Shown piece by piece: positions 3,741-39,572 of a stretch of DNA of 64,000 nucleotides. The notes below the pieces were generated by a model that did not search any database, was not told where the DNA came from, and was given only the letters and a program-made list of their open reading frames with translations. How positions within the stretch are numbered: position 1 is the stretch's first letter; every line of letters begins with the position of its first letter. This DNA comes from Bacteriovoracia bacterium. GTDB taxonomy: Bacteria > Bdellovibrionota > UBA1018 > JBFWNL01. A program made the translations under genes and the position numbers. Location of the stretch: contig JBFWNL010000010.1 of NCBI GenBank assembly GCA_050251055.1, positions 1 to 64,000 on the forward strand. Reading direction: 5' to 3'.

Positions 3741-3965
3741 CTACATCTCCTTCAGACGGTGGGTGATCAGGCCGTGAGTAGGATCGTAGGGGGAGACAGC
3801 GACCGTCACGTTGTCTCCCACCAATACACGAATTTTGAATTTCTTGAGCCGGCCCGAGAGTCTTGCCATGACGGTGGCCCCATTACCCAATTGAACGACA
3901 TAGTTCCCGCCGCCCGTGACGTCGGAAATCTTGCCGTTTATCTGGATAAGGTCCTCTCTCGACAT
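3741..3965 (-). CDS. infA: Translation initiation factor IF-1
   Basis: 74 aa; ARLSGRLKKFKIRVLVGDNVTVAVSPYDPTHGLITHR matches IF-1 pattern. Confidence 0.92.
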   Translation of the reverse strand: MSREDLIQINGKISDVTGGGNYVVQLGNGATVMARLSGRLKKFKIRVLVGDNVTVAVSPYDPTHGLITHRLKEM

Positions 3966-3992
3966 AACCCGCCCATAGAGAAAGAAGTTGGA

Positions 3993-4346
3993 TTAGTAAC
4001 GACCGCGTCCGCCGCCGCCACCACCGAAGCCGCCGCGTCCACCGCGACCGCCACCGCCGCCGCCGAAGCCGCCGCGTCCACCGCCGCCTTCACGGGGCGC
4101 CATGGGACGAGCTTCGTTCACCGTCATCGCGCGGCCTTCGTAGTCAGCGCCATTGAACTTAGCGATCGCGTCTTGAGCTTCCGCGTCCGTGGACATTTCC
4201 ACGAAGCCGAAGCCCTTGCTGCGACCGGTTTCACGATCCATGATGATTTTAGCCGATTCCACGGTTCCGCATTGAGCGAAAGTGTTCGCGAGCACGTCAT
4301 CGGTCGCGGTGAAAGGCAGATTTCCAACGTAAAGTTTTTTTCCCAT
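3993..4346 (-). CDS. RRM RNA-binding protein with Gly/Arg-rich tail
   Basis: RNP2 LYVGNL, RNP1 KGFGFVEM, RGG-rich C-terminus; GGAGG RBS. Confidence 0.95.
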   Translation of the reverse strand: MGKKLYVGNLPFTATDDVLANTFAQCGTVESAKIIMDRETGRSKGFGFVEMSTDAEAQDAIAKFNGADYEGRAMTVNEARPMAPREGGGGRGGFGGGGGGRGGRGGFGGGGGGRGRY

Positions 4347-4517
4347 ATAACCTCCAAATGGCCGGGGCCGCTAACAACGAGGATATGGGACACTATGTCC
4401 GCAGACTCTGTAGTGGCTAAACTGCCTTGCACCTTAGCAAAAGGATTGCCTTTCGGGTACCTCGAATTTCCAAGATCTAGATAATTCTAGACTAAAATAA
4501 TCATATAATATTCTGCC

Positions 4518-5465
4518 CTAACTACGGGGAGAATTCACCGCCGCGGCTGGATCTTTTCGGCTTTTGATCACCGAATAGAGGATCGCCGCCCCTAAGCAGA
4601 TGAGGATCACGATCAGGGACCAACCGGGGGAAATTTTATAAATATCGGTCAGACAGAGCTTGATCCCGACAAAGCTCAGGACGGTTGCCAGCCCGTAACG
4701 TAAATAAGCAAACAACGACATCAGGCCTGCCAACGCGAAGTAGAGCGAACGCAAGCCCAAGATCGCGAAAATATTCGAAGTATATACGATGAACGGATCG
4801 CTTGAGATGGCCAAAATAGCGGGAATGGAGTCCGCCGCGAAAACCAGGTCCGTTACCTCGACAATAATGAGCACCATCAAAAGCGGCGTACCCAGGCGAC
4901 GCCCGTTTTGAATCGTGATGAACTTGCCACCGTCGTATCGATCGCTAAAACGAAACCATCGGGTGGCGAACTTCACGATCCATCGCTCGCGCGGATCGGT
5001 CTCGCCGGCATCCCCCCCGAAGGCGAGCTTAATGCCGGTAACCAGGAGAAACGCGCCAAAGATATAGACGATCCAGTGAAACTGCTTCAATAAGGCGATC
5101 CCGCCGAAAATGAATATCGCCCGCATGACCAGCGCGCCCAATATCCCCCAGAACAACACGCGGTGCTGGAGCTTAGACGGCACGGCGAAGGCCGAGAAGA
5201 TCGTCAAGAACACGAAGAGATTGTCGACACTCAGCGACCATTCAATCACGTAGCCGGTGAGGAAAGTGATGGCGGCGTCCTTGCCCCGAAAAAACCAGAT
5301 GCCGCCGTTAAACAGCAGCGCGAGCGAAAACCAAACCGCGCTCCAGCTCAAAGCCTCCTTAAACTTGATCTCGTGCGCCTTCTTGTGAAAAACCCCCAAA
5401 TCGAGAGCCAGCGCGGCGAAGAGAAAGAGGTGAAAGCCGATCCAGGGCCAATAGTTTTGCAGCAT
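4518..5465 (-). CDS. TerC/Alx family membrane protein
   Basis: EWSLSVDNLFVF, QHRVLFWGILGALVMR, DLVFAADSIPA, SNIFAILGLRSLYF. Confidence 0.93.
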   Translation of the reverse strand: MLQNYWPWIGFHLFLFAALALDLGVFHKKAHEIKFKEALSWSAVWFSLALLFNGGIWFFRGKDAAITFLTGYVIEWSLSVDNLFVFLTIFSAFAVPSKLQHRVLFWGILGALVMRAIFIFGGIALLKQFHWIVYIFGAFLLVTGIKLAFGGDAGETDPRERWIVKFATRWFRFSDRYDGGKFITIQNGRRLGTPLLMVLIIVEVTDLVFAADSIPAILAISSDPFIVYTSNIFAILGLRSLYFALAGLMSLFAYLRYGLATVLSFVGIKLCLTDIYKISPGWSLIVILICLGAAILYSVIKSRKDPAAAVNSPRS

Positions 5466-5562
5466 CTTTAAAAATTCCCTGGATTCAATCCTACGTGAAG
5501 GTGCGGCTGGCGCCCATTCCCAATTTGCGATCGGGTTCTTTGCTTTAAACGAATGCTCGGCC

Positions 5563-6444
5563 TCACAGCGAAAATCCCTGCATCAGCTTGGCCGCCACCG
5601 GATTTTCGTGTTTACGATGAGCGGAAATAAGCCAAACTTCTTCGTAAACCCCCCTTAGCCGGCCGATGCGTTCGAGCTTTCCTTCCTTCTCCAAGGCGTC
5701 GATCGCGGTTTCGGAAAACGGCGCCAGCCCCAGGCCATTCAGCGCCATCAGCCGCTGCAAACTCGTATCTTGGGTTTCCGCCGCCGGCGCGATCTGGATT
5801 CCTTGCAATTTGAAGTAGTGGTTCAGGTCGTGGCGAAGACGGCTATGGGCGGTAGGCAACACGAATGGCTTGCCGTTAAGGGATTTGGGAAACCCCCGGC
5901 GCAGCTCCACATATTGGCGGGCGCCGAAAACCGAAACGGGTGATTTGGCCACCGATTTCGAATAAACCTGTTCGCGGTCGGACGCGGGCGGCGGAAAATT
6001 CGAGAGAATCAAGTCCAGCCGGTGCGTGTAAAGCTCGCGGAAAAGCTCATCCCCCTTCCCTTCCAAAATGGAAACCGTGCAGGGGCCAATTCGGTACGCC
6101 GCCTTCGCTAACGAGAGAATCACGCTCTTCGGTACGCTATCGAGCGCGCCAATCTGCAGGTGGGTCTTGTTGTCCACGGTCTTGTCCTTCATGACCTCCA
6201 AAAGCTCGTCACCGAGGCGAAAAATCTCGTTGGCGTAATCGAGCGCAGCCAAGCCGGCCTCCGTTAGCACCATTTTGCGGTTACGCCGCTCAAACAAAGC
6301 TACACCCAGGGTCTCTTCCAGTTGTCGAAGCTGCGTGCTCAAGGTGGGCTGGCCCAACCTCAATTTCGCGGCGGCCCGGGCAATGCCGCCCTCGTTGGCG
6401 ATCGCCCGAAAATAAAAGAGGTGGTGGTAATTCAGCCAAGTCAT
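5563..6444 (-). CDS. LysR family regulator, NhaR-like
   Basis: WLNYHHLFYF...QPTLSTQLRQLEETLG HTH typical of NhaR-like LysRs. Confidence 0.88.
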   Translation of the reverse strand: MTWLNYHHLFYFRAIANEGGIARAAAKLRLGQPTLSTQLRQLEETLGVALFERRNRKMVLTEAGLAALDYANEIFRLGDELLEVMKDKTVDNKTHLQIGALDSVPKSVILSLAKAAYRIGPCTVSILEGKGDELFRELYTHRLDLILSNFPPPASDREQVYSKSVAKSPVSVFGARQYVELRRGFPKSLNGKPFVLPTAHSRLRHDLNHYFKLQGIQIAPAAETQDTSLQRLMALNGLGLAPFSETAIDALEKEGKLERIGRLRGVYEEVWLISAHRKHENPVAAKLMQGFSL

Positions 6445-6543
6445 TGATCATTCTCTTTTTTAGAATAATTAAATCGCATTTATCGTATTTTAATAACCGA
6501 AGGTCAAGCCTATGCTATGTAGAGTCCTGTAGGAGGCTATTTT

Positions 6544-7455
6544 ATGGCTTGGTTAAAGCGCATCGGTTTGTTTATCGCGGTGAACCTGTTGGTGATGGTG
6601 ACCATCTCCGTCATCCTCAACGTGCTGGGGGTCGGTAATTACATCACCCGGTACGGCCTGGATTACTCCTCGCTGATGGTGTTCTGCCTGGTTTGGGGTA
6701 TGGGCGGCGCCTTCATCTCGCTCGCGCTTTCCCGCGTCATGGCCAAGTGGATGATGGGGGTGCGGATCATTCCGGCCGATACCCGCGACCCGACCCTAAG
6801 CGAGCTGGTCGAAACCGTGCATGAGCTGGCCCGCGCGGCCCGTCTCCCTGCCATGCCCCAAGTCGGCATCTACGATTCCCCCGAGGTGAATGCTTTCGCC
6901 ACCGGGCCTAGCAAATCCCGCTCGCTCGTGGCCGTTTCCACCGGCCTCTTGCAACGCATGCGCAAAGGCGAGGTCCACGGCGTGCTTGGCCACGAAGTGG
7001 CCCACATCGCCAACGGCGATATGGTGACCATGACCCTGATTCAAGGCATCGTGAACGCGTTCGTGATGTTCTTGGCCCGCGTGATCGCATTCGCGCTTAC
7101 GATGAGTGGCCGCGACCGCGACAGCGAGGAAAGCTCGGTCGGTAGCCCCATGGCTTACTACGCAGTGCAGTTCGTGCTCGAAATCGTGTTCATGATCCTC
7201 GGTTCGATCGTCGTGGCGTGGTTCTCGCGCTTACGCGAGTACCGAGCCGACGCGGGCGGTGCCCGCCTGGCAGGCCGCGAGAACATGGTGCAGGCGCTCC
7301 AAGCCCTGCAACGCACGTTCGAAGGCGTCGACCCCTCCGCGCAACCTGCGATCCAGGCGCTTAAGATCTCGAGCCGGCCGGGCGGAATCATGCGGCTGTT
7401 CTCTACGCACCCGGCTCTCTCGGACCGCATCGCGCGCTTGCAAAACGCCGTCTAA
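6544..7455 (+). CDS. htpX: Zinc metalloprotease HtpX (M48)
   Basis: NAFATG, HEVAHIANGDMVT, SRLREYRAD, FSTHP. Confidence 0.95.
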   Translation: MAWLKRIGLFIAVNLLVMVTISVILNVLGVGNYITRYGLDYSSLMVFCLVWGMGGAFISLALSRVMAKWMMGVRIIPADTRDPTLSELVETVHELARAARLPAMPQVGIYDSPEVNAFATGPSKSRSLVAVSTGLLQRMRKGEVHGVLGHEVAHIANGDMVTMTLIQGIVNAFVMFLARVIAFALTMSGRDRDSEESSVGSPMAYYAVQFVLEIVFMILGSIVVAWFSRLREYRADAGGARLAGRENMVQALQALQRTFEGVDPSAQPAIQALKISSRPGGIMRLFSTHPALSDRIARLQNAV

Positions 7456-17824: not shown

Positions 17825-17901
17825 TGGTGGGCCCACTAGGACTTGAACCTAGGACCAATCGGTTATGAGCCGACCGCTCTAACCAGCTGAGCTATGGGCC
17901 C
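17825..17901 (-). tRNA. tRNA with CAT anticodon, most likely tRNA-Ile2 (lysidine)
   Basis: Reverse complement folds as a cloverleaf: GGGCCCA/TGGGCCC acceptor stem, GTCGG-CTCATAA-CCGAT anticodon arm, TTCAAGT T-loop, encoded CCA; lacks initiator features. Confidence 0.93.
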
Positions 17902-19350: not shown

Positions 19351-21300
<1,950 letters not shown>

Positions 21301-21851
21301 AGAAACTGCTAAACTCCTTCATTTCGATGAGAAGGTCAAGGCGCGCGAGCGCGGATCCGCGCGAATCATTTCGCCTTTTCCTCAAAGATTTCGTGCGAAA
21401 AACATGCCTGCATTCTGAGTGGGAAAGGAATTGGATAAGAACCTTAAGCGCAAGCCTAAAGCCAGCCTTAAAACCACTGTTTTATTTATTAATATCAAAT
21501 ACTTACAAATGTACCCAGAATTCGATTTCACCTCAGAGACAAACACACTGCCGGTTTCCGCGTCGTAGCCCCTCTGAGCCGCCCTATAAAACTTTCGTCG
21601 TTTTGGAACAAAAAAAGTCACCGCCGACGGAGTGGGAAGAATTAATTCAGATAAAACTTTTTTGGTCCATTATGCTTACTACACCAAACCCCACGAAATC
21701 AGATTTAAATACCTTATGGCTTGATGCGTTAAAAAAAAATTGACTAACGCTTCTTAAAATGAAATCAACGCATCGAGTCAAAATTCAAGGTTGGTGGGTG
21801 ACCTGAGAGATCTTCCCCCTAACGACTGATTTCCTCGAGGAGCGGATAGCG

Positions 21852-24800
21852 ATGCAGAACTTCCTTTCGACTTTTTTGGCCGCGGTTTTTCCTTCAGCCA
21901 TGATGGCTAACCTTCCCGCCCAAAATCTCACCGACATGGTCCTGGTAAATGACTCGAACCAGGCTTTTTACATCGATATTTTTGAACCCACCGCAACCCA
22001 GGTCAACGCGATCGTGCGTGGAGCGGCCTCGAACGATCCGAACAAAGCTGCCCGAATCACTCGATTCGAAAACGCCGTGGCATTCTGCGAACGCCAAGGC
22101 AAACGGGTGCCCACCCAGCAAGAGTGGATGGCTGCCGCCTCGAACTTGGGACGGAATCGTAACTACACGCTCCGCGGAGATGCCCTCCAAGACGCGCGGG
22201 GTAATCTACTGGTCAATATCAACGGAAACTACCGGGAAGCGGACGGCAGCACGGGCTCGGCGTCGCCTTACCTCACATCCGCCCTTGGGATCGACGCCAT
22301 CGGCACGGTTGGCATGACGGGAAACCGCGCCGAATGGGTGTATAACAATCGGGCCTCCGGACAGTGCGGATCCCGCTACGAAGAAAACAACATCGCGAAC
22401 GCACGCCTCGATCGAATTTGTTCCGCGCCGCTAAGCGATTCGGCGACGGTCCGTTGCGTAACCAACGCCAACGGTGCCGACACCGTAACCTATTCGGCCA
22501 ACGTATCGGGCGAACTTTTGACCTACCTAAATCAGATCGGTGGCCGTGGAAACGGAGCCCCCCCGGCAGTGAACCCACCGGCAGGCAATGGCCGGCCTAA
22601 CAATCCCCCGGCACGCCCCGGCAACAACCGCCCCGGCGATGACGAACCCGAAGCTCCGGTGCAGGGACCTCCACCCGAACCCAAGTACGACAATGAATTC
22701 GGAATCAACCCGGACCAGCCGCTCGCCGTGAATGACGCCCGCGTGCTGCCGGTGACCGACTACCTCATCATTTACCACGAAACCGCGGAGTATTTCGCTG
22801 AGGAGACGGGCCTAGAGCTGACCCCCGGCGTTTACGTCGCTTCCCGCGGCATCCTCAATACCCGCTCCGATCTGCAGAACCTGTTGATGGGCGGCGTGTG
22901 GACCAATCCATTCGGCGATCTGGCGCCGATTACGGCGGGTTATGCCAGTGGCGTAGCCGGGCCGGAAACCCGTGACGAAATCTGGGCCTCCCAGAACAAC
23001 CAGTATTTCCGGCTGCAAGACGGGAATAAGAAACTGCAAGCCATCGTCAAGGGCGTGCCCTACAAAATCTTCCCGGCCACCCTGGGCGCGTTCTTCCTTA
23101 CGAAGGACCGCAAAGTGACTTTCGTTCCCCGTAAGGCGGAAAACACGAAGTCCATGCAGCCCTTCAAGAACGTGAAGGTATTGAACGAAAACTATGTGAC
23201 CCTTACGCGCGACAAGCGCGGCCTGATCCTGCTCACCGAGTCCAAGCAGAAGAACATGGCGACCGTATCGATTTTGCGTTTTGACGGGAAGCTTACTCCG
23301 CTCGTGGACGTCGCCATGGAAGACGACCGCATTCGCGCGTCCGTTTCCGCGGACGGCATTTTCATCCCCACGAAGCAAGCCAAACCGGACGACCGCCAAG
23401 GCACCAGCATCGTCGGGTACATTCGCTTGGCGGACGACGGCTCGGTCATCGATCGCCGGGACAATATCTTCGAAACCCGCCCTGGCCAAGACTTGGTGTT
23501 TGAAGCGGAATGGCCCGAAGTCCGCGTGCGCAAAGCGCTCGGGGGCCGCATCTCTTATCGCGTGGCGGCCGACGGCTCGCTGCATGACAAGGCTCGAGGC
23601 GGCGACTCGGCGGCCACCCCGACCGGAGAAAATCTCCGTACGCTTAAAACCTTCGCCGAACATTGGACCGAAAAGGCCGCCAACGGCGACTTCGACGACC
23701 TGATGGATCGCGATGATTACATTGGCGACGCGCTGAACGTCATGCGCGCGAACAAAAACACTTGGGTGAACATTAACGGTCCGTTCGGCGTCGGCAAAAC
23801 CACACTGCTCAAGCTCATTGCCCGCACGGTCAACGCCCAGTCTGCTGCGAAGAAAGACTGGGTCGGCTACCAAGTATTCCACCTGCCGCTTTCCTCGGTG
23901 GCTGCCCTCATGGGCACCCAGGTCCAAGAAGGCGGGCAAGGCGGCGCGGCACCTCAGGCGGCCCCTAGCGCGGAGCAGCCCATTAACCGTCTACTCGAAG
24001 CGGTGGCGGGCAAGAAAGTCATCCTCGTGATGGACGACTTCCTGGACGACCCGAAGCTGGGACCCACGAACGTACAAAAATCGCTGGATGTATTCCTCGG
24101 CGCTTTCCGCGAAAAAATCGTCACTGGCCAATTGAAAATCGTGACCACGACGGACGCGCGCCTCTGGGTACAGGCCTTCGACCAAAACCCCGCCCTCGGC
24201 AACATGGTCACGACGGTCACCGTGCAGTCCGCCGGAATGACGGAATTGGCGATGATCCTGGGCGCCGAAATGCGCGCGCTTGAAAAACACTGGCGGTTGA
24301 AGTTCGACGCCGGCGTACTGGATGTCATCATCAACTCCGCCGCGGAAATCGATCCGACGACGCAAGAACCCCACCGTTCGATCAAGGCCGTGAACAAGCT
24401 GGCGTCGCTCCTAGGCGACGAAGTCAAACGCTCGGGCAGCCAGCTCATGATCGTGAGCGAGCAAAAGGCCCGATCCATCCTCCTTACGGGCGGATTAGTG
24501 GACGACGGCGTCGATGTCGAGCAACTCGGGCCTTATCTATCTTCGAAAATATTAGGCCAAGAAGAAGCAATCGATCGGATTTCCACTTCCATGCAAAGCT
24601 TGGCGCTCGGCGTGACCTCCCGCCGCGGAACGCGAGCGGTGCTCTTCCTGATCGGGCCCACGGGTACGGGCAAGACCTACGCTTCCGAGCTCATGGCGAA
24701 GTTCTTGAAAAAAGAAATCGTCAAGATCGATATGACGAAGTTCACGGGATTCACGGAACAGACCTTGTATACCCAAAAGATCAAGTCTCTGGGCGACAAG

Positions 24801-25478
24801 GACTACGTCCTTATCCTCGATGACATCGACAAGAGCCCGAACGCGAACAAGATCCTAACGGAATTGCGCCCGATCTTCGACGATGGCGTCTACGGACGCG
24901 GCACGAAGGACGAGCTTAGCTTCCGTAACGCGATCGTGATCATCACCGGCAACTACGCGGCCCAGCTGATATTGGACGCGAAGAACGACCCGCACGAAAT
25001 CATGAAGAATAAGGTGCGGGATTACGTGTTCGCCGACAAAACGCCGGATGCGGAAAAAATACCGAAGCACGTATGGTCCCGAATCGAGTCCTCGATCATC
25101 ATCTTTAAGGGCTTGAGCGTCGAGACCCTCATGCAAATCGCCCAGATATCGGCACAGCAGCTCAGTGCGGACATGCGCAATCGCTTCAATATTAGCGTCA
25201 CGCTGTCTAATCGTCTGATCGCGAACTTGGTCCACAAGAGCGCGGAAGCCGAGCTCGGTGCGGTTCCGGTGCAAAAGAAGATCGAGACCGAAGTGAAGGA
25301 AAAAATCGCCTTGCACATGGTCAAAGCCGAACGTGACGGCCGCCGCTACAAGATCCGGCAAATCGCCGTGAATCTCAACAGCGCCGACGAGATCATCTTG
25401 ACCGACGATCAACAGCCGGGTTTCGCCTCCGCCCTCAAACAGGCCGGTGAGCCCGCCGATGCAGGAGAACAACCATGA
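21852..25478 (+). CDS. FGE-sulfatase-like domain fused to a degenerate Clp/Hsp100 double-AAA+ module
   Basis: FYIDIFEPT, AFCERQGKRVPTQQEWMAAA, MTGNRAEWV; Pro/Asn linker; Walker A GPFGVGKT and GPTGTGKT; Walker B VILVMDD and VLILDD. Confidence 0.8.
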   Translation: MQNFLSTFLAAVFPSAMMANLPAQNLTDMVLVNDSNQAFYIDIFEPTATQVNAIVRGAASNDPNKAARITRFENAVAFCERQGKRVPTQQEWMAAASNLGRNRNYTLRGDALQDARGNLLVNINGNYREADGSTGSASPYLTSALGIDAIGTVGMTGNRAEWVYNNRASGQCGSRYEENNIANARLDRICSAPLSDSATVRCVTNANGADTVTYSANVSGELLTYLNQIGGRGNGAPPAVNPPAGNGRPNNPPARPGNNRPGDDEPEAPVQGPPPEPKYDNEFGINPDQPLAVNDARVLPVTDYLIIYHETAEYFAEETGLELTPGVYVASRGILNTRSDLQNLLMGGVWTNPFGDLAPITAGYASGVAGPETRDEIWASQNNQYFRLQDGNKKLQAIVKGVPYKIFPATLGAFFLTKDRKVTFVPRKAENTKSMQPFKNVKVLNENYVTLTRDKRGLILLTESKQKNMATVSILRFDGKLTPLVDVAMEDDRIRASVSADGIFIPTKQAKPDDRQGTSIVGYIRLADDGSVIDRRDNIFETRPGQDLVFEAEWPEVRVRKALGGRISYRVAADGSLHDKARGGDSAATPTGENLRTLKTFAEHWTEKAANGDFDDLMDRDDYIGDALNVMRANKNTWVNINGPFGVGKTTLLKLIARTVNAQSAAKKDWVGYQVFHLPLSSVAALMGTQVQEGGQGGAAPQAAPSAEQPINRLLEAVAGKKVILVMDDFLDDPKLGPTNVQKSLDVFLGAFREKIVTGQLKIVTTTDARLWVQAFDQNPALGNMVTTVTVQSAGMTELAMILGAEMRALEKHWRLKFDAGVLDVIINSAAEIDPTTQEPHRSIKAVNKLASLLGDEVKRSGSQLMIVSEQKARSILLTGGLVDDGVDVEQLGPYLSSKILGQEEAIDRISTSMQSLALGVTSRRGTRAVLFLIGPTGTGKTYASELMAKFLKKEIVKIDMTKFTGFTEQTLYTQKIKSLGDKDYVLILDDIDKSPNANKILTELRPIFDDGVYGRGTKDELSFRNAIVIITGNYAAQLILDAKNDPHEIMKNKVRDYVFADKTPDAEKIPKHVWSRIESSIIIFKGLSVETLMQIAQISAQQLSADMRNRFNISVTLSNRLIANLVHKSAEAELGAVPVQKKIETEVKEKIALHMVKAERDGRRYKIRQIAVNLNSADEIILTDDQQPGFASALKQAGEPADAGEQP

Positions 25479-26341
25479 GGCTAACCTCTTCGCGCTTGAA
25501 CATATTGAGCCTATCCGTGATCGCGCTGCTCGCGGCCACTACGTCCGCGGGTGACCCGCCGGGCGGAGGGATTCCTTCCGGCCCGGATTCCGGGATGACC
25601 CGCAAAAGCCGGACGACGGCGGTCCTATTCGTGCTGGACATCTCGAACTCAATGTCCCGCGGCCCGATCACGCGTGTGAAGCAGACGATCACCCAGGTCG
25701 CCAGCTCGGTATCACCGGAAACCGGCCTAGGATTGATTTCCTTCTGGGGCTGCAAGGAAACCGACAACAACCTCGATTTCCCCTTGGCGACGGGCGCGGA
25801 CAACCAGAAAAGCTTGATCCAGGTGGCCAGCGCCATCCAGACCAAGCACGGAACCAACATCTATAGCGCCCTGATGCTCGCGGAGAAGGAAATCCAGCGC
25901 GTGAAGGATTGGTGCGTGAACGTAATCCTCCTCAGCGACGGCTTCGAGAACTGCGGACCGGGCGACTTCCGCTCCGTGGTCGGACGCATCGTTGGCCAGC
26001 ACGGTAGCGGCTGCAATGCCGTTCACACCATCAGCGTGTCGACGATGGGCTGGGAGAATAAGGTGCTCAAGGAAATTTCCGAACTAGGGCACGGCTCCCA
26101 CCAGGAAGTCGAAGAAGAAAAAGAAATCGAAGTGGCGATCACGAAGGTAGTTGAAGCCGTCAAACATACCCAGAAGGTGAAATGGGCGGGCGACGGCAAG
26201 CCGGCGGAGAAGAAAGAGGGCGAAGAGGCCCCGAAAACCGACGACACGACGCCGCCAGCGGAAGCCCCGGCCCCCGACGGCCCTCCACCCGCCCCGGCCG
26301 AAGCCCCCATTAAGAAGCAGAAAGAAAACGGAAAGCAATAA
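25475..26341 (+). CDS. Exported VWA-domain protein with intact MIDAS
   Basis: Signal peptide; FVLDISNSM (DxSxS), GTNIYSAL, ILLSDG; Pro-rich tail; ATGA overlap with the upstream gene. Confidence 0.88.
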   Translation: MRLTSSRLNILSLSVIALLAATTSAGDPPGGGIPSGPDSGMTRKSRTTAVLFVLDISNSMSRGPITRVKQTITQVASSVSPETGLGLISFWGCKETDNNLDFPLATGADNQKSLIQVASAIQTKHGTNIYSALMLAEKEIQRVKDWCVNVILLSDGFENCGPGDFRSVVGRIVGQHGSGCNAVHTISVSTMGWENKVLKEISELGHGSHQEVEEEKEIEVAITKVVEAVKHTQKVKWAGDGKPAEKKEGEEAPKTDDTTPPAEAPAPDGPPPAPAEAPIKKQKENGKQ

Positions 26342-26374
26342 CCCCAACCCCAACGAGATAGAGGATCCCGAACC

Positions 26375-28840
26375 ATGAAGAGCCTGAAGAATTCCGTACA
26401 GAAACCGATGATTTTCGCGAGCCTGGGCTTGGCCCTGCAAGCCGCCACGGCCATCGGCGCCTCCGCTAACGACTGCGTCGTTCGCCATAAAGCGAACTTC
26501 GACGAAGTGAAACCCGCCGGCGGCGGATACTGCGTCGGCGTGATGAATCCCAACAACGACCGTTTCGCGGAAGACAAGGATTATAACTACGTTGAAGGCA
26601 GCCTGATCTGGTTGAGCGACCAGTCAGACAAGCGCATCAAGCGCATCGGCAACATCCCGATGCAGTGGCTAGTTCTCGATAAAGGCGTCATCGGCGTTTA
26701 CTCGTCCGGCGCCAACTACTCCATCCGGTACTGGAACTCCGACACCTTGGGCACGCGCACCTGCAAGAGCGACATTAAGGTGGAAGACGTCAAGAAGGGC
26801 ACGACCAAGATCGAGCTGGGCAAGAATTTCATCCGCGTCGCCTCCCCGAGCGGTAACGAAGATTGGTACGGCGGCGCCGACGGCAACTGCACGAGCAAAA
26901 ACGCGCGCGCCTTCATGAATTTGACCTCGGAAGATCGCCGCGTGCTCGAGAAATACGGCACGAGCGGGGGTACCGGTGAATCCAACGAACTCACCAACCC
27001 CGTGGTGGCCGCCAAGCTGCGCATGCCGAAGGGCCGCGACGGCGTGATGAAGAATATGATCCAGGCCATGCAAAGCCAAGACATCCGCTCTGTACTGCTT
27101 TGGGGAGCGGCCGGCACGGGCAAGACGACGATCGCTTACGGCATCGCCAAGCGCATCGCGCAGAAAGATCCGACGCTGCCGGAATGGATCCGCGACTGGA
27201 GCATCTATGCCATCGATCTCTCCAAAGTGAACGAAGAAGGCGCCCTGGGCGTCGCGCAGAAGAAGATGACCGAGATCATCCAAGCCGCCGCCGGTAAGAA
27301 GGTGATTCTCTTGATGGACGAAATCCATCAGCTGCTAGGCCTCGGCGCCCGTGAGTCGGGATCCTCCGACGTTACGGATGCGCTCAAGACCCCGCTCGCC
27401 AACGGCCAGATCTGCATCATCGGAACCCTGACGGGCGACGTTGCCGAAAAGGGCCGTTTCGACGCGAACTCGGCGTTCCAACGCCGCTTCTCCCAGATGA
27501 TGATCGACGAGCCGAGCGACGAAGTGCTGCGGGAAATCTTCCGTGACTATGCCGACGAGATGACGAAGAAGTACAACGTCACTTACGACGACTTAGCCTT
27601 AGAAGAGATGATCAAGCTCACGCGCCAGTATGGCAACGGCCAGAAACACCCGGCCGTAGGCATCAACTTCCTCGATCAACTTTCCGCCTCGAAGGAAAAG
27701 AACGAGGGCGAAGCTTACGCCATCGTGGTCGCCGACATTAAAGCCAAAGTCGGCCTCATGTTCAACGTGGCGGCGCTGAAGCCGGTTGACCCGGCGAAGA
27801 AGGAAAAAACCATGGGCCAGAAGGCCGTGGTCTTCAAGGCCGAAATCAGCAAGCAGTTCATCGGCCAGACGTCTGCCCTAGACGTCGTGCAGCGGGGTCT
27901 CACGATCTACGCCGCACGCGGGGCTAAGCCCGGCAAGCCTCCGGTGTTCCTGTTCTTGGGGCCCTCCGGCGTGGGGAAGACTTACCTCGCCGAATTGACC
28001 GCCAAGTACTTCAACATGCCTTATAAGGAATTCAAGATGGAAGGCTATCAGCAGGAGCACAGCGTGGAGTCCCTGAAGGGTTCCCCGCAAGGTTACGTTG
28101 GCTCCCAAGAAGGCGGCGCGCTGCCGAACTGGATCAGCCAGAACCCGACTTCCGTGCTGAACTTCGATGAAATCGACAAGGCCCACCCACGCGTCCTGCA
28201 ATATCTAATGGGATTGTTGGAGCAGGGCGTGGTGCAGGACGGCAAGGGTAACGAGCACACCTTCCGCGGCGTCGTATTCCTCACTTCGAACTACCTGCTC
28301 GAAGTGATCGAGGAATGGGATCGCGCGAATGGAATCGAGGACAACGAGTGGAAAGCCACCAATGGCGACGCGAAACCGCCGTCGACCGGCATCGGATCCT
28401 ACACTCCGGAACAGCTCAAGCAGCACCTCATGAACCTGCTCGAGAAGCCGGGTGAAAACGGACAAGATCAGAAGATCGGGTCGTTCATCACCGGCCGTAT
28501 CGGGCTTGAGAACATCGTCATCTTCAACCACTTCAACAAGGAGCAAGCGAAGCAAGTCGCGATGCTCGAAGTGAAGAGCGTGCTCAAGAAGATGAAGGAA
28601 GACTACAAGAAAGACGTCGTGCCGGATCCTGCCCTCGTCGAGCACATCGTCAGCAACGGCTTCAGCTTCAAGTACGGCGCCCGCCCGGTTCGCGGCATGG
28701 CGGTGAGCTTGATCGAAGGACCGGTCGCCGAAAAGATGATCGAAATGGAAGGCCAGGAAGACCAGATCAAACGCCTGGTCGTCGGCATCCAAGGCGCTGG
28801 CCGCAGCGCCCGCGGCGTCGTACGGGTCGAGACGGAGTAA
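26375..28840 (+). CDS. ClpA/B-like double-AAA+ ATPase with N-terminal signal peptide
   Basis: GAAGTGKT, LLMDEIH, AFQRRF; GPSGVGKT, GYVG, FDEIDKAHP, LTSN, YGARP; N-terminus MKSLK...IFASLGLALQAATAIGASA. Confidence 0.88.
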   Translation: MKSLKNSVQKPMIFASLGLALQAATAIGASANDCVVRHKANFDEVKPAGGGYCVGVMNPNNDRFAEDKDYNYVEGSLIWLSDQSDKRIKRIGNIPMQWLVLDKGVIGVYSSGANYSIRYWNSDTLGTRTCKSDIKVEDVKKGTTKIELGKNFIRVASPSGNEDWYGGADGNCTSKNARAFMNLTSEDRRVLEKYGTSGGTGESNELTNPVVAAKLRMPKGRDGVMKNMIQAMQSQDIRSVLLWGAAGTGKTTIAYGIAKRIAQKDPTLPEWIRDWSIYAIDLSKVNEEGALGVAQKKMTEIIQAAAGKKVILLMDEIHQLLGLGARESGSSDVTDALKTPLANGQICIIGTLTGDVAEKGRFDANSAFQRRFSQMMIDEPSDEVLREIFRDYADEMTKKYNVTYDDLALEEMIKLTRQYGNGQKHPAVGINFLDQLSASKEKNEGEAYAIVVADIKAKVGLMFNVAALKPVDPAKKEKTMGQKAVVFKAEISKQFIGQTSALDVVQRGLTIYAARGAKPGKPPVFLFLGPSGVGKTYLAELTAKYFNMPYKEFKMEGYQQEHSVESLKGSPQGYVGSQEGGALPNWISQNPTSVLNFDEIDKAHPRVLQYLMGLLEQGVVQDGKGNEHTFRGVVFLTSNYLLEVIEEWDRANGIEDNEWKATNGDAKPPSTGIGSYTPEQLKQHLMNLLEKPGENGQDQKIGSFITGRIGLENIVIFNHFNKEQAKQVAMLEVKSVLKKMKEDYKKDVVPDPALVEHIVSNGFSFKYGARPVRGMAVSLIEGPVAEKMIEMEGQEDQIKRLVVGIQGAGRSARGVVRVETE

Positions 28841-28846
28841 TAAGCC

Positions 28847-29785
28847 GTGCGCCGCGGATTAATCGCGCTAGCCGCTGCTCTAACATGGATGATTTCGGTG
28901 ATGGCGGCGCCCGGGATGGGCGCCGCCGAACCGCCGGAAGTGGCCGCCTTGGCCAAGTTCCGCGTGAAAATGCGTTCATTGAAAGCGGCGGTTGGCTACG
29001 TCGATTACAAAGTCGAAGTCAAAGGGGCGAATTACAGCAGTTTCTGTAACTTATTCCTGGTCGGCGAAAACCTGGCATTGACCGCATCTCATTGCATCAG
29101 CACGCAGGCCCAATGCGATACTGCCACTGCGTACTTCTCCGAGGACGGTGATAGCCCGACTCACCACTATGCTTGCAAGAAAGTGTTGGGTATCGGCGCT
29201 CCGTACGACGACAACCTGAAAAACCAAGATGACTTTTCGCTTTTGGAGCTGGAGGGCAAGCCCGGTTCAGATCTTTTGACCGCACCGCTGCACTTCATGC
29301 AGCCCACCGAAGGTCAGAAGTGGCTCTACGTTTTCCTGCCGAAGTACGACACGAAGACCCATATCAAGGATAACATCTCGAGAAGTCTGTCGATTTGCAT
29401 GGCTCGTCGCTCGCACGTGGAATCCGAGATCGGATCTTGGGAAATTAGGCCGCTGCCCAATTCGGACGAACCCTGTCATCTCATGCGTGGAAACTCCGGC
29501 GGACCGATTTTTAACATTCAAGGAAAGATTATCGGAATAGCCACTTGGCTCAAAGCCGCGGAAGGATCGGTGGGAGAGCTGAATGATAACCGCGTGATCG
29601 AAGCGAGAGGTCCTACGATCCAGTCGGTAACCAACAAGCTGGCATCATTGCGCCTGCTTTACCCGGTGGACGCGCCCAAGAACAAACCTGACCCGGAAAT
29701 GGGCCTAGGTACCGCGCCCGAAAAAGAAATCGTCACGATTCCCGCGACCAAGGCCGAACGCAAAAAAGCCCTCGAAGAAAAATAA
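28847..29785 (+). CDS. Exported trypsin-like (S1) serine protease
   Basis: Signal peptide; ALTASHC, DDFSLL, GNSGGP catalytic triad. Confidence 0.88.
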   Translation: MRRGLIALAAALTWMISVMAAPGMGAAEPPEVAALAKFRVKMRSLKAAVGYVDYKVEVKGANYSSFCNLFLVGENLALTASHCISTQAQCDTATAYFSEDGDSPTHHYACKKVLGIGAPYDDNLKNQDDFSLLELEGKPGSDLLTAPLHFMQPTEGQKWLYVFLPKYDTKTHIKDNISRSLSICMARRSHVESEIGSWEIRPLPNSDEPCHLMRGNSGGPIFNIQGKIIGIATWLKAAEGSVGELNDNRVIEARGPTIQSVTNKLASLRLLYPVDAPKNKPDPEMGLGTAPEKEIVTIPATKAERKKALEEK

Positions 29786-29789
29786 CTCG

Positions 29790-31757
29790 TTAACTGGATG
29801 GCGAATCCGGCGCGCCGCCGGTCAATTCCTTGCGCTTTTTCTGGACATCCAAATACATGGACATTAGCTCGGCTTGTCGGCCGGAATCCTGGTTGGCCGC
29901 CGCTTCGGCGAGATCCGCCTCGATTTTCTGCGAAAACGCACCCCATGCGCGCGCGAGTCCCTTGCTTAGCGCCAGCCGGATATCTTCGGAGGGGGTGCCG
30001 GCTTCCGCGATAAAAGTCTCCACGAGCAGCGACCGCAAGGCCGGGGGCAGCTCCTGCTCAAAAAGCAAGGCCTGCACGGCTGCCGGATCTTGGCGGCTGG
30101 TTTCCCATTCCGGCCGGGCGAGCAAGCGCGAAGCACAGTCTTTGAAAGCCGGATGCTGGAAAAGCTCGCTGAGCGGTGTCTGGGGCGGCAAATTCAGTTG
30201 GGCGTGGTTCCAATCGGTTTGAAACTCCGCCCACTTCGCCAGCGCGACCATCAATAACTTATCGGAGGGCCCCGGTTTGGCGCTCGCGGAAACGGGACGC
30301 GCGGCCGGGCGCACCGCCATGCCCACGCGAGGGCCGCCACCGGCCGGTGAATTCGGGTACGCCGGGGGCGCGGACTTCAGCGGCGGCAAGCCAAAGAGAT
30401 CGCGCCGAATACCCAAGCGCTGCTCGAGCGCGCTCACGCGGACTTCTCGTCCCACCGGATCCTGATAGAGGGCAAGCCACTGACCGATTTTTTTGATCGC
30501 TTGCGTCTTTTGCTCGGGCCCGTGGGTGGCAAGCTGCACTTGCTCGTCGATGCGCAGATCCAGCAAGGGCTTCGCCTCGCGCACCATCGCCTGCAGCCGT
30601 TCGGCGCCGCTCGGCTGCTCGCCTTGCGCGGGAAGCGCCGCGAATTCGTCGGGGTCGATATCCTCGGGCAAAAAAGCGGCGTGGACGATCACGCCTTGGC
30701 CAAGCGCCGTCTCCATCGCCCGGTCGGTGGCGTCACGGCCAGCCGTATCGCCGTCAAACAGAAGCACAATTCGGCTCGTAAGGCGCTGAAAGATCTGCAA
30801 GTGCTCGGTCGTGAGCGCGGTCCCACAGGTCGCCACTGCCTGCTTTAAGCCCGCCTTATGCAAGCCGAGGACATCGAAATAGCCTTCGACCAAGATCAGC
30901 TCGTCCAGCTCGCGAATATGCTTTTTGGCCTGAAATAGCCCAAAGGCGAGTTTACTTTTACGGAAAAGCGGTGACTCAGGCGAGTTGAGGTACTTCGGCG
31001 TATGGGCCCCATCCACCGAAGAGGAAGCATCGCCCGGAAGGATGCGCCCGCCAAAGCCCGCCACGCGCCCACGCAGATCCAAGATGGGGAACATCGCGCG
31101 ATTTCGAAATAGATCGAAATGACCCGTAACACTCGACTTCGCGCCCGGAGAAGAAGGCCGAATGAGCCCCAGCCGCGCGGCCATTTCCAAAGGCGCTTTC
31201 GCGTCCATCAGGCGCTTGGCCAAGCCTTCCCATTCCGCAGGCGCATAGCCCGCATAAAATTCCCGCTCAAGATCTCCGGTGATCCCGCGCTCGTCCAAAT
31301 AGCCACGCGCTTCCGCGCTCTGGGCGAGCGAATTACGGTAAAACGCCGCCGCGAAGCGATTGAGCTTGAACGCCACCGCCATCTCGTCGCGCTGTCCTCC
31401 CGAGCCAGGACCGTCCGCGCCGCTCGCCGAGCGCTTGATCACGCCCTCGAGCGAAATCCCCGCACGCGATGCGAGCTCCTCGACCGCCTCGATGAACGTG
31501 ATCCCGTGCAGATCAACCAAGAAGGAAATCATGTCGCCACCGGCCTTGCAGCCGTAGCAGTGGAAAAGCTGTTTCTGCTCGCTCACGCTGAAGGAGGGCG
31601 AACGCTCCGAGTGGAAGGGGCAGAGACCCGTATAGTTCGCGCCCTGCTTACGCAAAACCACGTGCTCGCCGACGATCTCGAGGATGCTGACCTTGTCCTT
31701 GATCTTACGCAGAAGTTCGGGCGAGATTTTGGACGAGCTGCCGGCGGACTGGCTCAT
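29790..31757 (-). CDS. dnaG: DNA primase
   Basis: CPFHSERSPSF...CYGC zinc finger, FRNRAMFPI, KYLNSPE, LVEGYFD, FDGDTAG; start re-called at the ATGA overlap with mpg. Confidence 0.97.
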   Translation of the reverse strand: MSQSAGSSSKISPELLRKIKDKVSILEIVGEHVVLRKQGANYTGLCPFHSERSPSFSVSEQKQLFHCYGCKAGGDMISFLVDLHGITFIEAVEELASRAGISLEGVIKRSASGADGPGSGGQRDEMAVAFKLNRFAAAFYRNSLAQSAEARGYLDERGITGDLEREFYAGYAPAEWEGLAKRLMDAKAPLEMAARLGLIRPSSPGAKSSVTGHFDLFRNRAMFPILDLRGRVAGFGGRILPGDASSSVDGAHTPKYLNSPESPLFRKSKLAFGLFQAKKHIRELDELILVEGYFDVLGLHKAGLKQAVATCGTALTTEHLQIFQRLTSRIVLLFDGDTAGRDATDRAMETALGQGVIVHAAFLPEDIDPDEFAALPAQGEQPSGAERLQAMVREAKPLLDLRIDEQVQLATHGPEQKTQAIKKIGQWLALYQDPVGREVRVSALEQRLGIRRDLFGLPPLKSAPPAYPNSPAGGGPRVGMAVRPAARPVSASAKPGPSDKLLMVALAKWAEFQTDWNHAQLNLPPQTPLSELFQHPAFKDCASRLLARPEWETSRQDPAAVQALLFEQELPPALRSLLVETFIAEAGTPSEDIRLALSKGLARAWGAFSQKIEADLAEAAANQDSGRQAELMSMYLDVQKKRKELTGGAPDSPSS

Positions 31758-32410
31758 GCCCGCCCCGCTTTCCGCGACGCTGGTGTCGACCACGGGCGCG
31801 CGGCTCGGTTTTGGCGAGACCGGCTCACGTACGGGTTACCCGCGATGAAATAGCGCCACTCTTGCTCGATCGCCTTCGTAATGCCCACGCGCGGGGACAC
31901 GTGGATCGCGGCGGACCGAAAGCCGTCGTCATACACAAAAAGCTCCGGGCCGCGTAACGACGCCCGGTTGTGCTTCATCCGGATGCCCATCGCCCGACAA
32001 AGTCTTCCCGGACCGTTCGTCCAATCGCGGCGGCTTGGACCGCGACGACGGCGCATCAGGGCGAAGCCCTCGAGCGGCTCCACCGCGCGGATCAGGACCG
32101 CGCCCGGCACGTGCTCGGCTTCGGTCACGAAATTGAGCATCTCGTACATCCCATAGATAAAATAAACGTAGGCGATTCCCGCCGCCTCGAACATCGGCGA
32201 GGTACGCGCGGTTTTTCCCGTCGCTGAATGCGAAGCGGGATCGTCCCCCATATAAGCTTCGGTTTCCACGATGCGCCCCGCGGTGATCTGCTCATACGGG
32301 CCGCGCGCCTGGCGGACCACCAGGACTTTTCCCAGTAAATCGCGCGCAACCTCGTGAGTATCGCGCGCAAAAAAACGACGGGGGAGCAGCTTTCGCCGTC
32401 CCCCGTCCAA
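31754..32410 (-). CDS. mpg: DNA-3-methyladenine glycosylase (MPG/AAG)
   Basis: VARDLLGK, GRIVETEAY, AYVYFIYGMY, AVLIRA, NGPGRLC, PRVGI; TTG start inferred. Confidence 0.92.
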   Translation of the reverse strand: MDGGRRKLLPRRFFARDTHEVARDLLGKVLVVRQARGPYEQITAGRIVETEAYMGDDPASHSATGKTARTSPMFEAAGIAYVYFIYGMYEMLNFVTEAEHVPGAVLIRAVEPLEGFALMRRRRGPSRRDWTNGPGRLCRAMGIRMKHNRASLRGPELFVYDDGFRSAAIHVSPRVGITKAIEQEWRYFIAGNPYVSRSRQNRAARPWSTPASRKAGRA

Positions 32411-38299: not shown

Positions 38300-39572
38300 G
38301 GATCGCCTCCAATACTTCCTTGGCGTGGGTCAGGTTGATCCGCTTCTCCTGCATGAGCAGCGCGGCCAAGCGCTCGCGGCACTCGGCAATTTCATGGATT
38401 TCCGCACCGGCGGCGATCGCCAAGTTCGCCGCGTGCAACTTCATATGTCCTTGTACGATCCCGACCGTCGAAAGCGCGCGCAGCGCGCCCAGGTTCTGCA
38501 CCAGGCCCACGGCCACGCAGATGCGCGCGAGGTCGTCGGCGTGTTCGATGCCCATCATCTTCAGGGCCACCTTCGCCGTCGGATGCGAGCGGGTCACCCC
38601 GCCCACCGTTCCCACGGCCATCGGGATCTCGATCTGGCCGATCAGATCGCCGCCTTCCATGCGCCAATCGGTGATGGGCTGGTAGCGTCCGGAACGGGAA
38701 GCGTACGCGTGCACGCCCGCTTCCACCGCGCGCCAGTCGTTGCCGGTGGCGATCAAGATGGGGTCAATGCCGTTGAGCACGCCCTTATTGTGCGTGGTCG
38801 CGCGGTAGGGATCGGCCTTCGCGAAGATCGCGGCCTCGCAGATGCCCTTGCCCACGGCGGGATCGATGTCGCGGATGACGATCTCGGCGACGACCAAACG
38901 GCCGTCCGTCAAATTGGAGAGGATGCACATGCCAACGCGCTCGCCGGTCAGCGTTTCGATGCGGGGCTTGAGCGCTTCGCAAACTTGGTTGATAAGGTTC
39001 GCGCCCATGGCGTCGCAGGTGTCGCAAAGGAGGTGGAGCACCAGCATCTGACCGCCGTCCGGGCGATCGAGCACCCGTACGCCGATGTCACGCACGCCGC
39101 CGCCGCGCTTGACGATACCCGGCATGCATTCGTTGCCGAGCTCGATGAGCCGGTCACGGTTTTCGTGCAAGAGGTTGCGCGCGCGCTGGGCGTCGGCGAC
39201 GAGCGGGAGCTGGATCTGGCCAATCACCAAACGACCCTTCACGTAAGTGCGAATATGACCTTCGCGCGCGACCCATTTCGCGGTAGCGCTCGCGGCGGCC
39301 ACGATGGAGGTTTCTTCGACCGCCATCGGGATCAGGACGTTCTTACCGTCGATCTTGAAATAGGTGGCAACTCCCAGGGGAATCGCGAACGTGCCGACCA
39401 CGTTCTCGATGAGGTTGTCGGCCATTTCGGCCGAAAGCGAATCTTCGCCGGAAAGCGCCAGTACTTCCGAATCCGTGAGCCCGCAAAATTTTTGCACGCG
39501 CGCCAAGCGCTCCGTACGAGTCAGCTTATGGAAGCCGGTCATTAATTGCTGTTGTTCTTCTTGATCGAGCAT
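38250..39572 (-). CDS. mvaA: HMG-CoA reductase, class II
   Basis: ENVVG, PMAVEETS, DAMGAN, RATTHNKG, GNDWRAVEAG, GHMKLH. Confidence 0.95.
   Translation of the reverse strand: MLDQEEQQQLMTGFHKLTRTERLARVQKFCGLTDSEVLALSGEDSLSAEMADNLIENVVGTFAIPLGVATYFKIDGKNVLIPMAVEETSIVAAASATAKWVAREGHIRTYVKGRLVIGQIQLPLVADAQRARNLLHENRDRLIELGNECMPGIVKRGGGVRDIGVRVLDRPDGGQMLVLHLLCDTCDAMGANLINQVCEALKPRIETLTGERVGMCILSNLTDGRLVVAEIVIRDIDPAVGKGICEAAIFAKADPYRATTHNKGVLNGIDPILIATGNDWRAVEAGVHAYASRSGRYQPITDWRMEGGDLIGQIEIPMAVGTVGGVTRSHPTAKVALKMMGIEHADDLARICVAVGLVQNLGALRALSTVGIVQGHMKLHAANLAIAAGAEIHEIAECRERLAALLMQEKRINLTHAKEVLEAIRDQCVPPARANESVEL

Follow-up and report, generated by a model that had tools for sequence, protein, structure and literature searches.

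Can a bacterium send ATP-driven unfolding motors of the Clp type out of its own cytoplasm, and where would they find ATP? The question is raised by four genes at positions 21852-29785 of a 64,000-nucleotide stretch of DNA (the window; contig JBFWNL010000010.1, positions 1 to 64,000, assembly GCA_050251055.1) from a Bacteriovoracia bacterium of the phylum Bdellovibrionota. The genes encode two Clp-type ATPases (AAA1 and AAA2), a VWA protein and a serine protease of family S1, and their products carry signal-like N-termini. In the textbook view the bacterial periplasm and exterior are without ATP, and DegP, SurA and Skp for that reason function ATP-free. We know of no bacterium that operates Clp-type ATP motors outside the cytoplasm, so export signals on such motors are odd. 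No Sec-exported bacterial Clp/Hsp100 or AAA+ machine was found described in the open-access and bioRxiv literature, supplementary tables aside. The reading preferred here, to which we give about an even chance, is that the four genes encode a single Sec-exported machine which binds, unfolds and cuts proteins and which would act at a site outside the producer that offers ATP, prey being the most likely.

The four open reading frames (ORFs) lie in tandem on the plus strand in the order AAA1 (21852-25478, 1208 amino acids), VWA protein (25475-26341, 288 amino acids), AAA2 (26375-28840, 821 amino acids; the likely motor) and S1 protease (28847-29785, 312 amino acids, GTG start). Genes 1 and 2 overlap by 4 bp (ATGA, 25475-25478), and gaps of 33 and 6 bp separate gene 2 from gene 3 and gene 3 from gene 4; the coordinates thus agree with a preliminary description of the locus, which had called the four genes tightly linked. 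A Shine-Dalgarno-like motif stands 5' of each of the four starts (ahead of gene 1, GAGGAG at 21837-21842), and no in-frame start codon is present upstream of the annotated starts of the cluster genes. Scans for consensus promoters and for terminators gave nothing above shuffle level. Among the sequencing runs with the stretch no RNA run is listed; two DNA runs (X1, X2) contain it and may be where it comes from.

The same gene order, which the preliminary description had suggested looking for in Bdellovibrionota, was found by genome searches in four other loci, so that the order AAA1-VWA-AAA2-protease occurs in five loci of three Bdellovibrionota genomes. These are the window, a second copy on contig C1 of the same genome (G000), L010 in a Bacteriovoracaceae metagenome-assembled genome (MAG), and L011 and L042, two copies in 'Proteobacteria bacterium SG_bin7', which is assigned to the same phylum as the window genome. 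The C1 copy (L009:6821-14089, minus strand) is divergent and consists of AAA1 (1013 amino acids), a fusion of VWA to the N-terminus of AAA2 (1085 amino acids) with a degenerate first AAA+ module (D1), and a trypsin-like protease (330 amino acids); all three proteins have clear signal-like N-termini. The scan of species-representative genomes yielded 26 loci, two of them true (L010 and L011), and the two strong loci among the matches listed in a metagenome scan were the same DNA as L042 and L010. When AAA2 was run by word index against 5.8 billion proteins, two full-length relatives were returned (P0008 and P0009; 37-38 % identity), the remaining matches listed being ordinary ClpC and ClpB proteins with Clp_N at ≤32 % identity. 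A profile of the AAA2 N-domain gave nine matches at E≤0.001 among 1.84 billion representative proteins, five of them at ≤1e-30, of which P0248 and P0249 were new; the domain occurs in 3 of 401 sampled phylum genomes, one match being weak. The flanking genes are different in all five loci. Judged by this distribution, the cluster is a conserved, mobile and very rare operon.

Two features of neighbouring and variant copies may be recorded here. Five paralogous proteins without a Pfam match flank the C1 copy (L009:14173-18250 and 3899-6579), and AAA2 of L011 (L011:9905-13375, about 1156 amino acids) has a third AAA module, a duplicated second module (D2) with its own D2-small domain.

Export of the four proteins is considered probable, on the strength of their N-termini and cysteines. 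Signal character was assessed by using two home-made heuristics (lax and strict), not SignalP. All 19 system proteins of the five loci passed the lax test and 15 passed the strict one, compared with 699 (40 %) and 423 (24 %) of the 1738 ORFs of the genome background; three further AAA2 homologues (P0008, P0248 and P0249) all passed the strict test. The pattern shared by all 19 is a short, usually basic stretch followed by an uncharged hydrophobic run and a small-x-small site. It is evident in the window in genes 2-4, which begin with basic, then hydrophobic, then small residues (signal-like segments at residues 1-26 of the VWA protein, 1-30 of AAA2 and 1-26 of the protease); the segment of gene 1 (residues 1-23) is weak, being devoid of basic residues, and passed the lax test only. 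This is the distribution that the preliminary description had reported, with gene 1 as the weaker case. The N-terminal sequences differ among homologues, their signal-peptide character alone being conserved, and the ordinary ClpA-like and ClpB-like proteins of the same genome have a polar start and no signal-like N-terminus.

Multiple cysteines in the non-ATPase domains, likewise pointed out earlier, were counted as four in gene 1, all in the FGE-like part (the other 918 residues have none), four in the VWA protein (93, 147, 160 and 180), four in the N-domain of AAA2 (plus one in its AAA part) and six in the protease. Those of the VWA protein occupy the same positions in all four stand-alone VWA proteins; the four of the AAA2 N-domain and the six of the protease are each kept in four of the five loci. 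The non-ATPase domains carry paired cysteines, as disulfide-bonded exported proteins do.

These N-termini bear on a quite different explanation, in which the cluster is a cytoplasmic NTPase-vWA-protease system for conflict or defence, like those treated by Kaur et al. 2020, and the hydrophobic N-termini are not export signals. The domain inventory is similar: according to the available part of that paper (PMC7159879), vWA-MoxR ternary systems include vWA, AAA+, trypsin-like peptidase and FGS/FGE domains, and in the cluster, too, an AAA+ gene stands beside a VWA gene with a complete MIDAS, with the trypsin-like and FGS/FGE domains recurring. PADLOC gave weak matches to DolB, PDC-M37B and the LmuA protease, and the cluster is an insertion whose context differs at every locus. 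The PADLOC matches are, however, limited to the generic AAA and protease cores, with none for the VWA protein. MoxR systems are single-module and cytoplasmic, whereas the cluster has two double-module ATPases of the Clp type (best Pfam families AAA_2 and ClpB_D2-small), export-like signals and a VWA of the extracellular type; the MoxR family is absent from the best 25 Pfam families for either ATPase. Signal-like N-termini and paired cysteines are conserved across the loci, and 'signal peptide' and 'secreted' do not occur in the available portion of the eLife paper (PMC7159879). A cytoplasmic defence system is for these reasons regarded as very unlikely.

If the proteins leave the cytoplasm, the next question is whether they would still work as motors there, and the answer lies in AAA2. 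Pfam assigns to it AAA (residues 240-343), AAA_lid_9, AAA_2 (residues 524-647) and ClpB_D2-small, in line with the second AAA-AAA protein of the preliminary description. The D1 module has a Walker A motif (GAAGTGKT, 27104-27127) and a Walker B DE (27317-27322); the AAA_2 part of D2 (27944-28315; Walker A GPSGVGKT, Walker B DE) contains a GYVG pore loop at 28091-28102 and is followed by D2-small at 28535-28756. In the alignment of six AAA2 sequences, five have GxxGxGKT and DE in D1; the pore loop of D1 has degenerated. In D2, the glycines of Walker A, Lys535, D598/E599, R708 and G768-A769-R770 are invariant in all six, as is the aromatic-hydrophobic-Gly form of the D2 pore loop (GYVG-type). Overall identity among the six is only 22-38 %, and retention of the D2 motor motifs at this divergence points to selection on hydrolysis and threading. 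Since the hydrolysis sites are conserved, ATP would be needed at the site of action.

The N-terminal part of AAA2 is a four-Cys domain (26465-27019) for which the predicted model (predicted local distance difference test score, pLDDT, 72) gave propeller-blade look-alikes; the corresponding model of AAA1 (pLDDT 60) gave weak beta-propeller-like matches only. By using Foldseek against the PDB, template modelling (TM) scores by query were ≤0.44 for both models, with best E values of 3.8e-3 and 3.4e-4, and a structure search of the Atlas returned propeller-like matches at TM 0.44-0.54, whereas the Atlas feature search yielded no usable match. Both N-domains are beta-rich and are accordingly described, weakly and from models, as possibly beta-propeller-blade-like, with no closer fold family claimed.

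AAA2 resembles ClpA and ClpC, class I Hsp100 unfoldases that work with ClpP, in its two AAA+ modules, both with intact Walker A and B motifs, in D2-small and in the GYVG loop of D2; AAA1 shares the two intact modules only in part. It differs from them in that Clp_N (PF02861) is absent from the best 25 Pfam families for AAA1 and for AAA2; in place of Clp_N, AAA2 has the predicted signal peptide and the four-Cys propeller-like domain. Against the ClpA profile TIGR02639 (cut-off 993) AAA2 scored 257.4 bits and AAA1 107.1 bits. The pore loop in D1 of AAA2 is degenerate, the protease encoded beside it is an S1 enzyme and not ClpP, and no conserved [ILV]G[FL], the form of the ClpP-docking IG[FL], occurs between the TSN sensor and the GR finger in the D2 alignment, which we take to be the site of the ClpP loop in ClpA. 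Identity as ClpB/Hsp104 was rejected on TIGR03346 (231 bits; cut-off 1232) and on the absence of the coiled-coil middle domain: AAA2 aligns to ClpA residues 190-607 as one contiguous stretch, which leaves no room for such an insertion. Identity as ClpV/TssH was rejected as well (TIGR03345, 240 bits; cut-off 885), the flanks being rpoD and dnaG and not type VI secretion genes. Judged by membership of these families, AAA2 is not ClpA, ClpB, ClpC or ClpV.

A precedent for a motor of this class outside the cytosol is found in eukaryotes. HSP101 of PTEX is an exported Clp/Hsp100 ATPase that works outside the cytosol of its producer, in a host-derived compartment. Chains of Plasmodium HSP101 (6e10, 6e11) are among the solved relatives of AAA2 (E about 1e-46), and by analogy HSP101 of PTEX may be taken as the closest functional analogue. 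It differs from the cluster in being eukaryotic and in having EXP2 and PTEX150 as partners, whereas the cluster has VWA and a protease and no pore-forming partner was seen. That the cluster itself is a PTEX-like bacterial unfoldase, moving proteins across a prey membrane or pulling them out of it on prey ATP or on ATP exchanged outward by a TLC-type carrier, is regarded as distinctly improbable; if true, it would end the rule that proteostasis outside the bacterial cytoplasm is independent of ATP.

AAA1 presents a different picture. Pfam matches in this protein are FGE-sulfatase (PF03781; residues 72-166, 22065-22349; 34.9 bits, cut-off 23.3; profile positions 98-192 of 255 only), AAA_2 (residues 931-1057, 24642-25022) and ClpB_D2-small (residues 1088-1164, 25113-25343), with a weaker first P-loop module near residues 630-790. 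After the FGE-sulfatase/C-type-lectin-like domain come a Pro-rich linker, which extends to about residue 290, and a beta-rich N-domain (residues 291-615, 22722-23696). Walker A of D1 is GPFGVGKT (23778-23801), with DD as Walker B, and that of D2 is GPTGTGKT (24654-24677). The preliminary description had read gene 1 as an FGE-like-AAA-AAA protein; its domains are borne out by Pfam, but the FGE-like part does not belong to the core, since this domain and the Pro-rich linker are confined to the window copy (one of the five AAA1 proteins in the alignment), and the ATPase part has partly decayed. Walker A of D1 has no lysine in three of five copies, Glu follows Asp in Walker B of D1 in one copy only, and Walker B of D2 is DD instead of DE in two of five. 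No template repeat of the type found in diversity-generating retroelements was detected in the genome for the FGE-like domain; the only matches elsewhere were of 49-58 nt, on contigs C1 and C5.

AAA1 and AAA2 are 26 % identical, and a 48-nt direct repeat (75 % identity; 23995-24042 and 27279-27326) covers the Walker B region of D1 in both proteins; on this comparison AAA1 is a partly degenerate ATPase and paralogue of AAA2, and the repeat a trace of the paralogy. By hhalign, no homology was detected between the N-domains of AAA1 and AAA2. Pairs of active and degenerate AAA+ paralogues encoded together are known from Mg-chelatase (BchI/BchD) and from Pex1/Pex6. BchI and BchD belong to another AAA+ clade (Mg chelatase) and Pex1/Pex6 are eukaryotic and cytosolic; neither pair is exported and neither has a protease partner.

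The degeneration of AAA1 might suggest that the exported AAA modules no longer use ATP at all and act, independently of it, as scaffolds or holdases for a secreted complex of adhesin and protease. The loss of Walker residues in AAA1 D1 and D2, the degenerate D1 of the fused C1 AAA2 and the textbook absence of ATP from the periplasm would all fit such an arrangement. It is nevertheless thought highly improbable, as Walker A, the DE of Walker B, the Arg finger, sensor 2 and the pore loop of AAA2 D2 are kept in all six sequences despite their low identity.

The VWA protein would provide a binding site. Its Pfam domain covers residues 50-208 (25622-26098) and includes the MIDAS motif D55-x-S57-x-S59 (25637-25651), completed by T127 and D155; all five residues are invariant in the five aligned VWA sequences, as expected from the VWA/MIDAS assignment made earlier. 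The closest solved structures are extracellular VWA domains, namely those of the inter-alpha-trypsin-inhibitor heavy chains (ITIH), BatB and the calcium-channel alpha2-delta subunit. A charged, Pro-rich C-terminal tail (26177-26338) corresponds to the linker of the fused VWA-AAA2 protein in the C1 copy. In BchD a VWA/MIDAS domain is tethered through a charged, Pro-rich linker, and this linker resembles the tail of the cluster protein. Prediction of a complex between VWA residues 40-235 and the AAA2 N-domain scored 0.00; run without controls, it is evidence neither way. Another likeness is with the Bdellovibrio MIDAS adhesin Bd0875, which, from the portion of PMC11003981 available, is an exported VWA/MIDAS protein with disulfides, from the same phylum and at the predator-prey interface. 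The likeness is one of description, and Bd0875 differs in being a lipoprotein with a small beta domain of its own; the word 'ATPase' does not occur in the main text of PMC11003981, as far as this was available.

Gene 4 matches Trypsin in Pfam (residues 52-236, 29000-29554; 42.2 bits, cut-off 20.6), and its triad of H82 (29090-29092), D129 (29231-29233) and S217 (29495-29497) is invariant in the five aligned sequences. By this score and the intact triad the product is an S1 (chymotrypsin-fold) serine protease, the class given to it in the preliminary description. HtrA/DegP is likewise an exported S1-fold protease, and in PDB and NCBIfam gene 4 is matched through its GNSGGP region only. However, gene 4 has no PDZ domain by Pfam and scored 26.8 bits against TIGR02037 (cut-off 416). 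DegP works without ATP, whereas the cluster protease gene sits with ATPase genes.

How the cluster came to its position in the window can be read from its flanks. On the left lies rpoD (19351-21300, minus strand) and on the right dnaG (29790-31793, minus strand), convergent with gene 4 and 4 bp from it. Twelve relatives of the same order were matched, of which one yielded no locus; rpoD and dnaG are directly adjacent in all 11 loci examined, and the cluster is therefore taken as an insertion in the window genome. It measures 8.5 kb, with the cluster on the strand opposite to both neighbours, and as a result rpoD now lies behind a new 550-bp AT-rich intergenic region, divergent between rpoD and gene 1 (21301-21851, from reading of the sequence). 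Neither flanking repeats nor a tRNA were found at the borders of the insertion. A tRNA-Met (CAT) gene lies away from the border, at 17825-17901 on the minus strand.

Would a bacterium of this lineage have access to ATP outside itself? The closest named relatives of DnaG are all Bdellovibrionota/Oligoflexia (Bdellovibrionales, Oligoflexia, Bdellovibrionia and Bdellovibrionota MAGs; 44-49 % identity), and two genes described as predator-enriched but not confined to predators (PMC4646340, available part) are present: HMG-CoA reductase of the mevalonate pathway (38430-39515, minus strand, E 3.7e-99) and kynA on contig C3 of the window genome. At the level of phylum, the host guessed at in the preliminary description is consistent with these results. 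Work on Bdellovibrio, as given in the available part of PMC11003981, indicates that proteins secreted into prey suffice for killing and that an exported MIDAS adhesin is active at the predator-prey junction; a study by Ruby and McCabe (1986) on an ATP transport system of intraperiplasmic Bdellovibrio is an entry in the reference list of PMC13689555.

A possible link to ATP lies in the flanks of two other loci. In two of the five loci, from two genomes, the cluster is followed closely, on its own strand, by a TLC-family (ATP/ADP transporter-like) gene (L010:15139-16572, PF03219, E 9e-16; L042:14216-15490, its homologue), which is the sole flanking gene shared between genomes. The two proteins are 28 % identical (E 2e-30) and are not mutual closest relatives, as other genomes hold relatives at 30-36 % identity. 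Members of this family are present in 99 of 401 phylum genomes, and in the window genome the homologue is unlinked, on contig C7; for both reasons the link of carrier and cluster is taken as suggestive only. In L010 the space between the protease gene and the TLC-like gene holds a gene for a protein with RCC1 repeats and a hydrophobic N-terminus (L010:13764-15200).

This neighbour lends some weight to the view that the machine works in the periplasm of its own producer, for example in remodelling or quality control of the envelope or of surface proteins, with an antiporter of the TLC type passing ATP outward in exchange for the ADP made by the machine. The linkage at L010 and L042 favours it; yet the family is widespread, no TLC-type gene stands at the L011 or C1 loci, porins would let ATP leak from the periplasm, and the direction of transport is not readable from sequence. 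In intracellular bacteria the known function of TLC-type carriers is the import of prey ATP. Work in the producer's periplasm, energised in this way, is considered unlikely, and the producer's own ATP-poor periplasm is the less likely site of action.

The preferred reading, a Sec-exported machine that binds, unfolds and cuts, can be set out as a sequence of steps. A target protein would be bound by the MIDAS site of the VWA protein and by the propeller-like N-domains, in the window copy possibly also by the lectin-like FGE domain. The D2 ring of AAA2 would thread and unfold the target, perhaps as a mixed ring of AAA2 with its degenerate paralogue AAA1, and the S1 protease would cleave the unfolded chain or, instead, mature the machine. 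The requirement for ATP makes prey, either the invaded periplasm or a leaky cytoplasm, the most likely site; action in or on prey is given an even chance, and delivery into prey and the source of ATP are what we infer. The preliminary description had proposed an extracytoplasmic unfoldase-protease module, and the sequence evidence supports that interpretation. Its three contrary outcomes, namely missing signal peptides, true starts downstream of the hydrophobic segments and homologues that do not occur together in other genomes, did not arise as far as sequence permits.

Several points weigh against this reading. No route across the outer membrane and no target can be named for the proposed machine, and its export and ATP supply are deduced from sequence only. 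The signal tests are crude, with 24-40 % of background ORFs passing, and window gene 1, L011 AAA2, L042 VWA and the L042 protease failed the strict one. The AAA modules contain 0-4 cysteines where 5-9 would be expected; this depletion was given little weight, as the cytoplasmic ClpA and ClpB of the genome are equally poor in cysteine (four and three). AAA1 has no canonical GYVG pore loop, and several of its copies have degenerate Walker motifs. To our knowledge, a monomeric S1 protease does not dock on any AAA+ ring. An AAA2 orthologue was found in none of 40 relatives of the same order, and predation is no more than putative in this uncultured lineage, the sole member of its family among the genomes compared.

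Signal-like N-termini on AAA+ proteins are not confined to the cluster. Three further signal-bearing AAA+ proteins are encoded in the window genome. One of 767 amino acids (C2:127601-129904; L048:3602-5905) combines a weak CUB match with AAA_2 and D2-small; the others, of 453 and 493 amino acids, are adjacent classical AAA proteins (C3:92876-94237 and 94250-95731; L049), a type present in 2 of 401 phylum genomes. A protein of 977 amino acids from a Pseudobdellovibrionaceae MAG (L027:8765-11698) combines a large beta-rich region with a signal-like N-terminus; its D1 is degenerate, its D2 intact (GPPGVGKT, FDEVDKA), and it is flanked by other signal-bearing unknown proteins. Neither VWA nor trypsin was apparent near it by eye in the neighbouring ORF translations, viewed without a Pfam scan, and only four relatives were found among 5.8 billion proteins.

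If the cluster proteins are exported and active, predators may deliver ATP-dependent unfoldases into prey and fuel them with the ATP of the prey; or else it is possible for a bacterial periplasm to be energised. Each of these alternatives, if true, would introduce a new principle into bacterial secretion and predation and might be a source of enzymes that kill prey. The small family described here (three genomes and a few metagenome proteins), together with the three further signal-bearing AAA+ proteins, provides a defined set with which the habit of exporting AAA+ proteins may be tested in the phylum.

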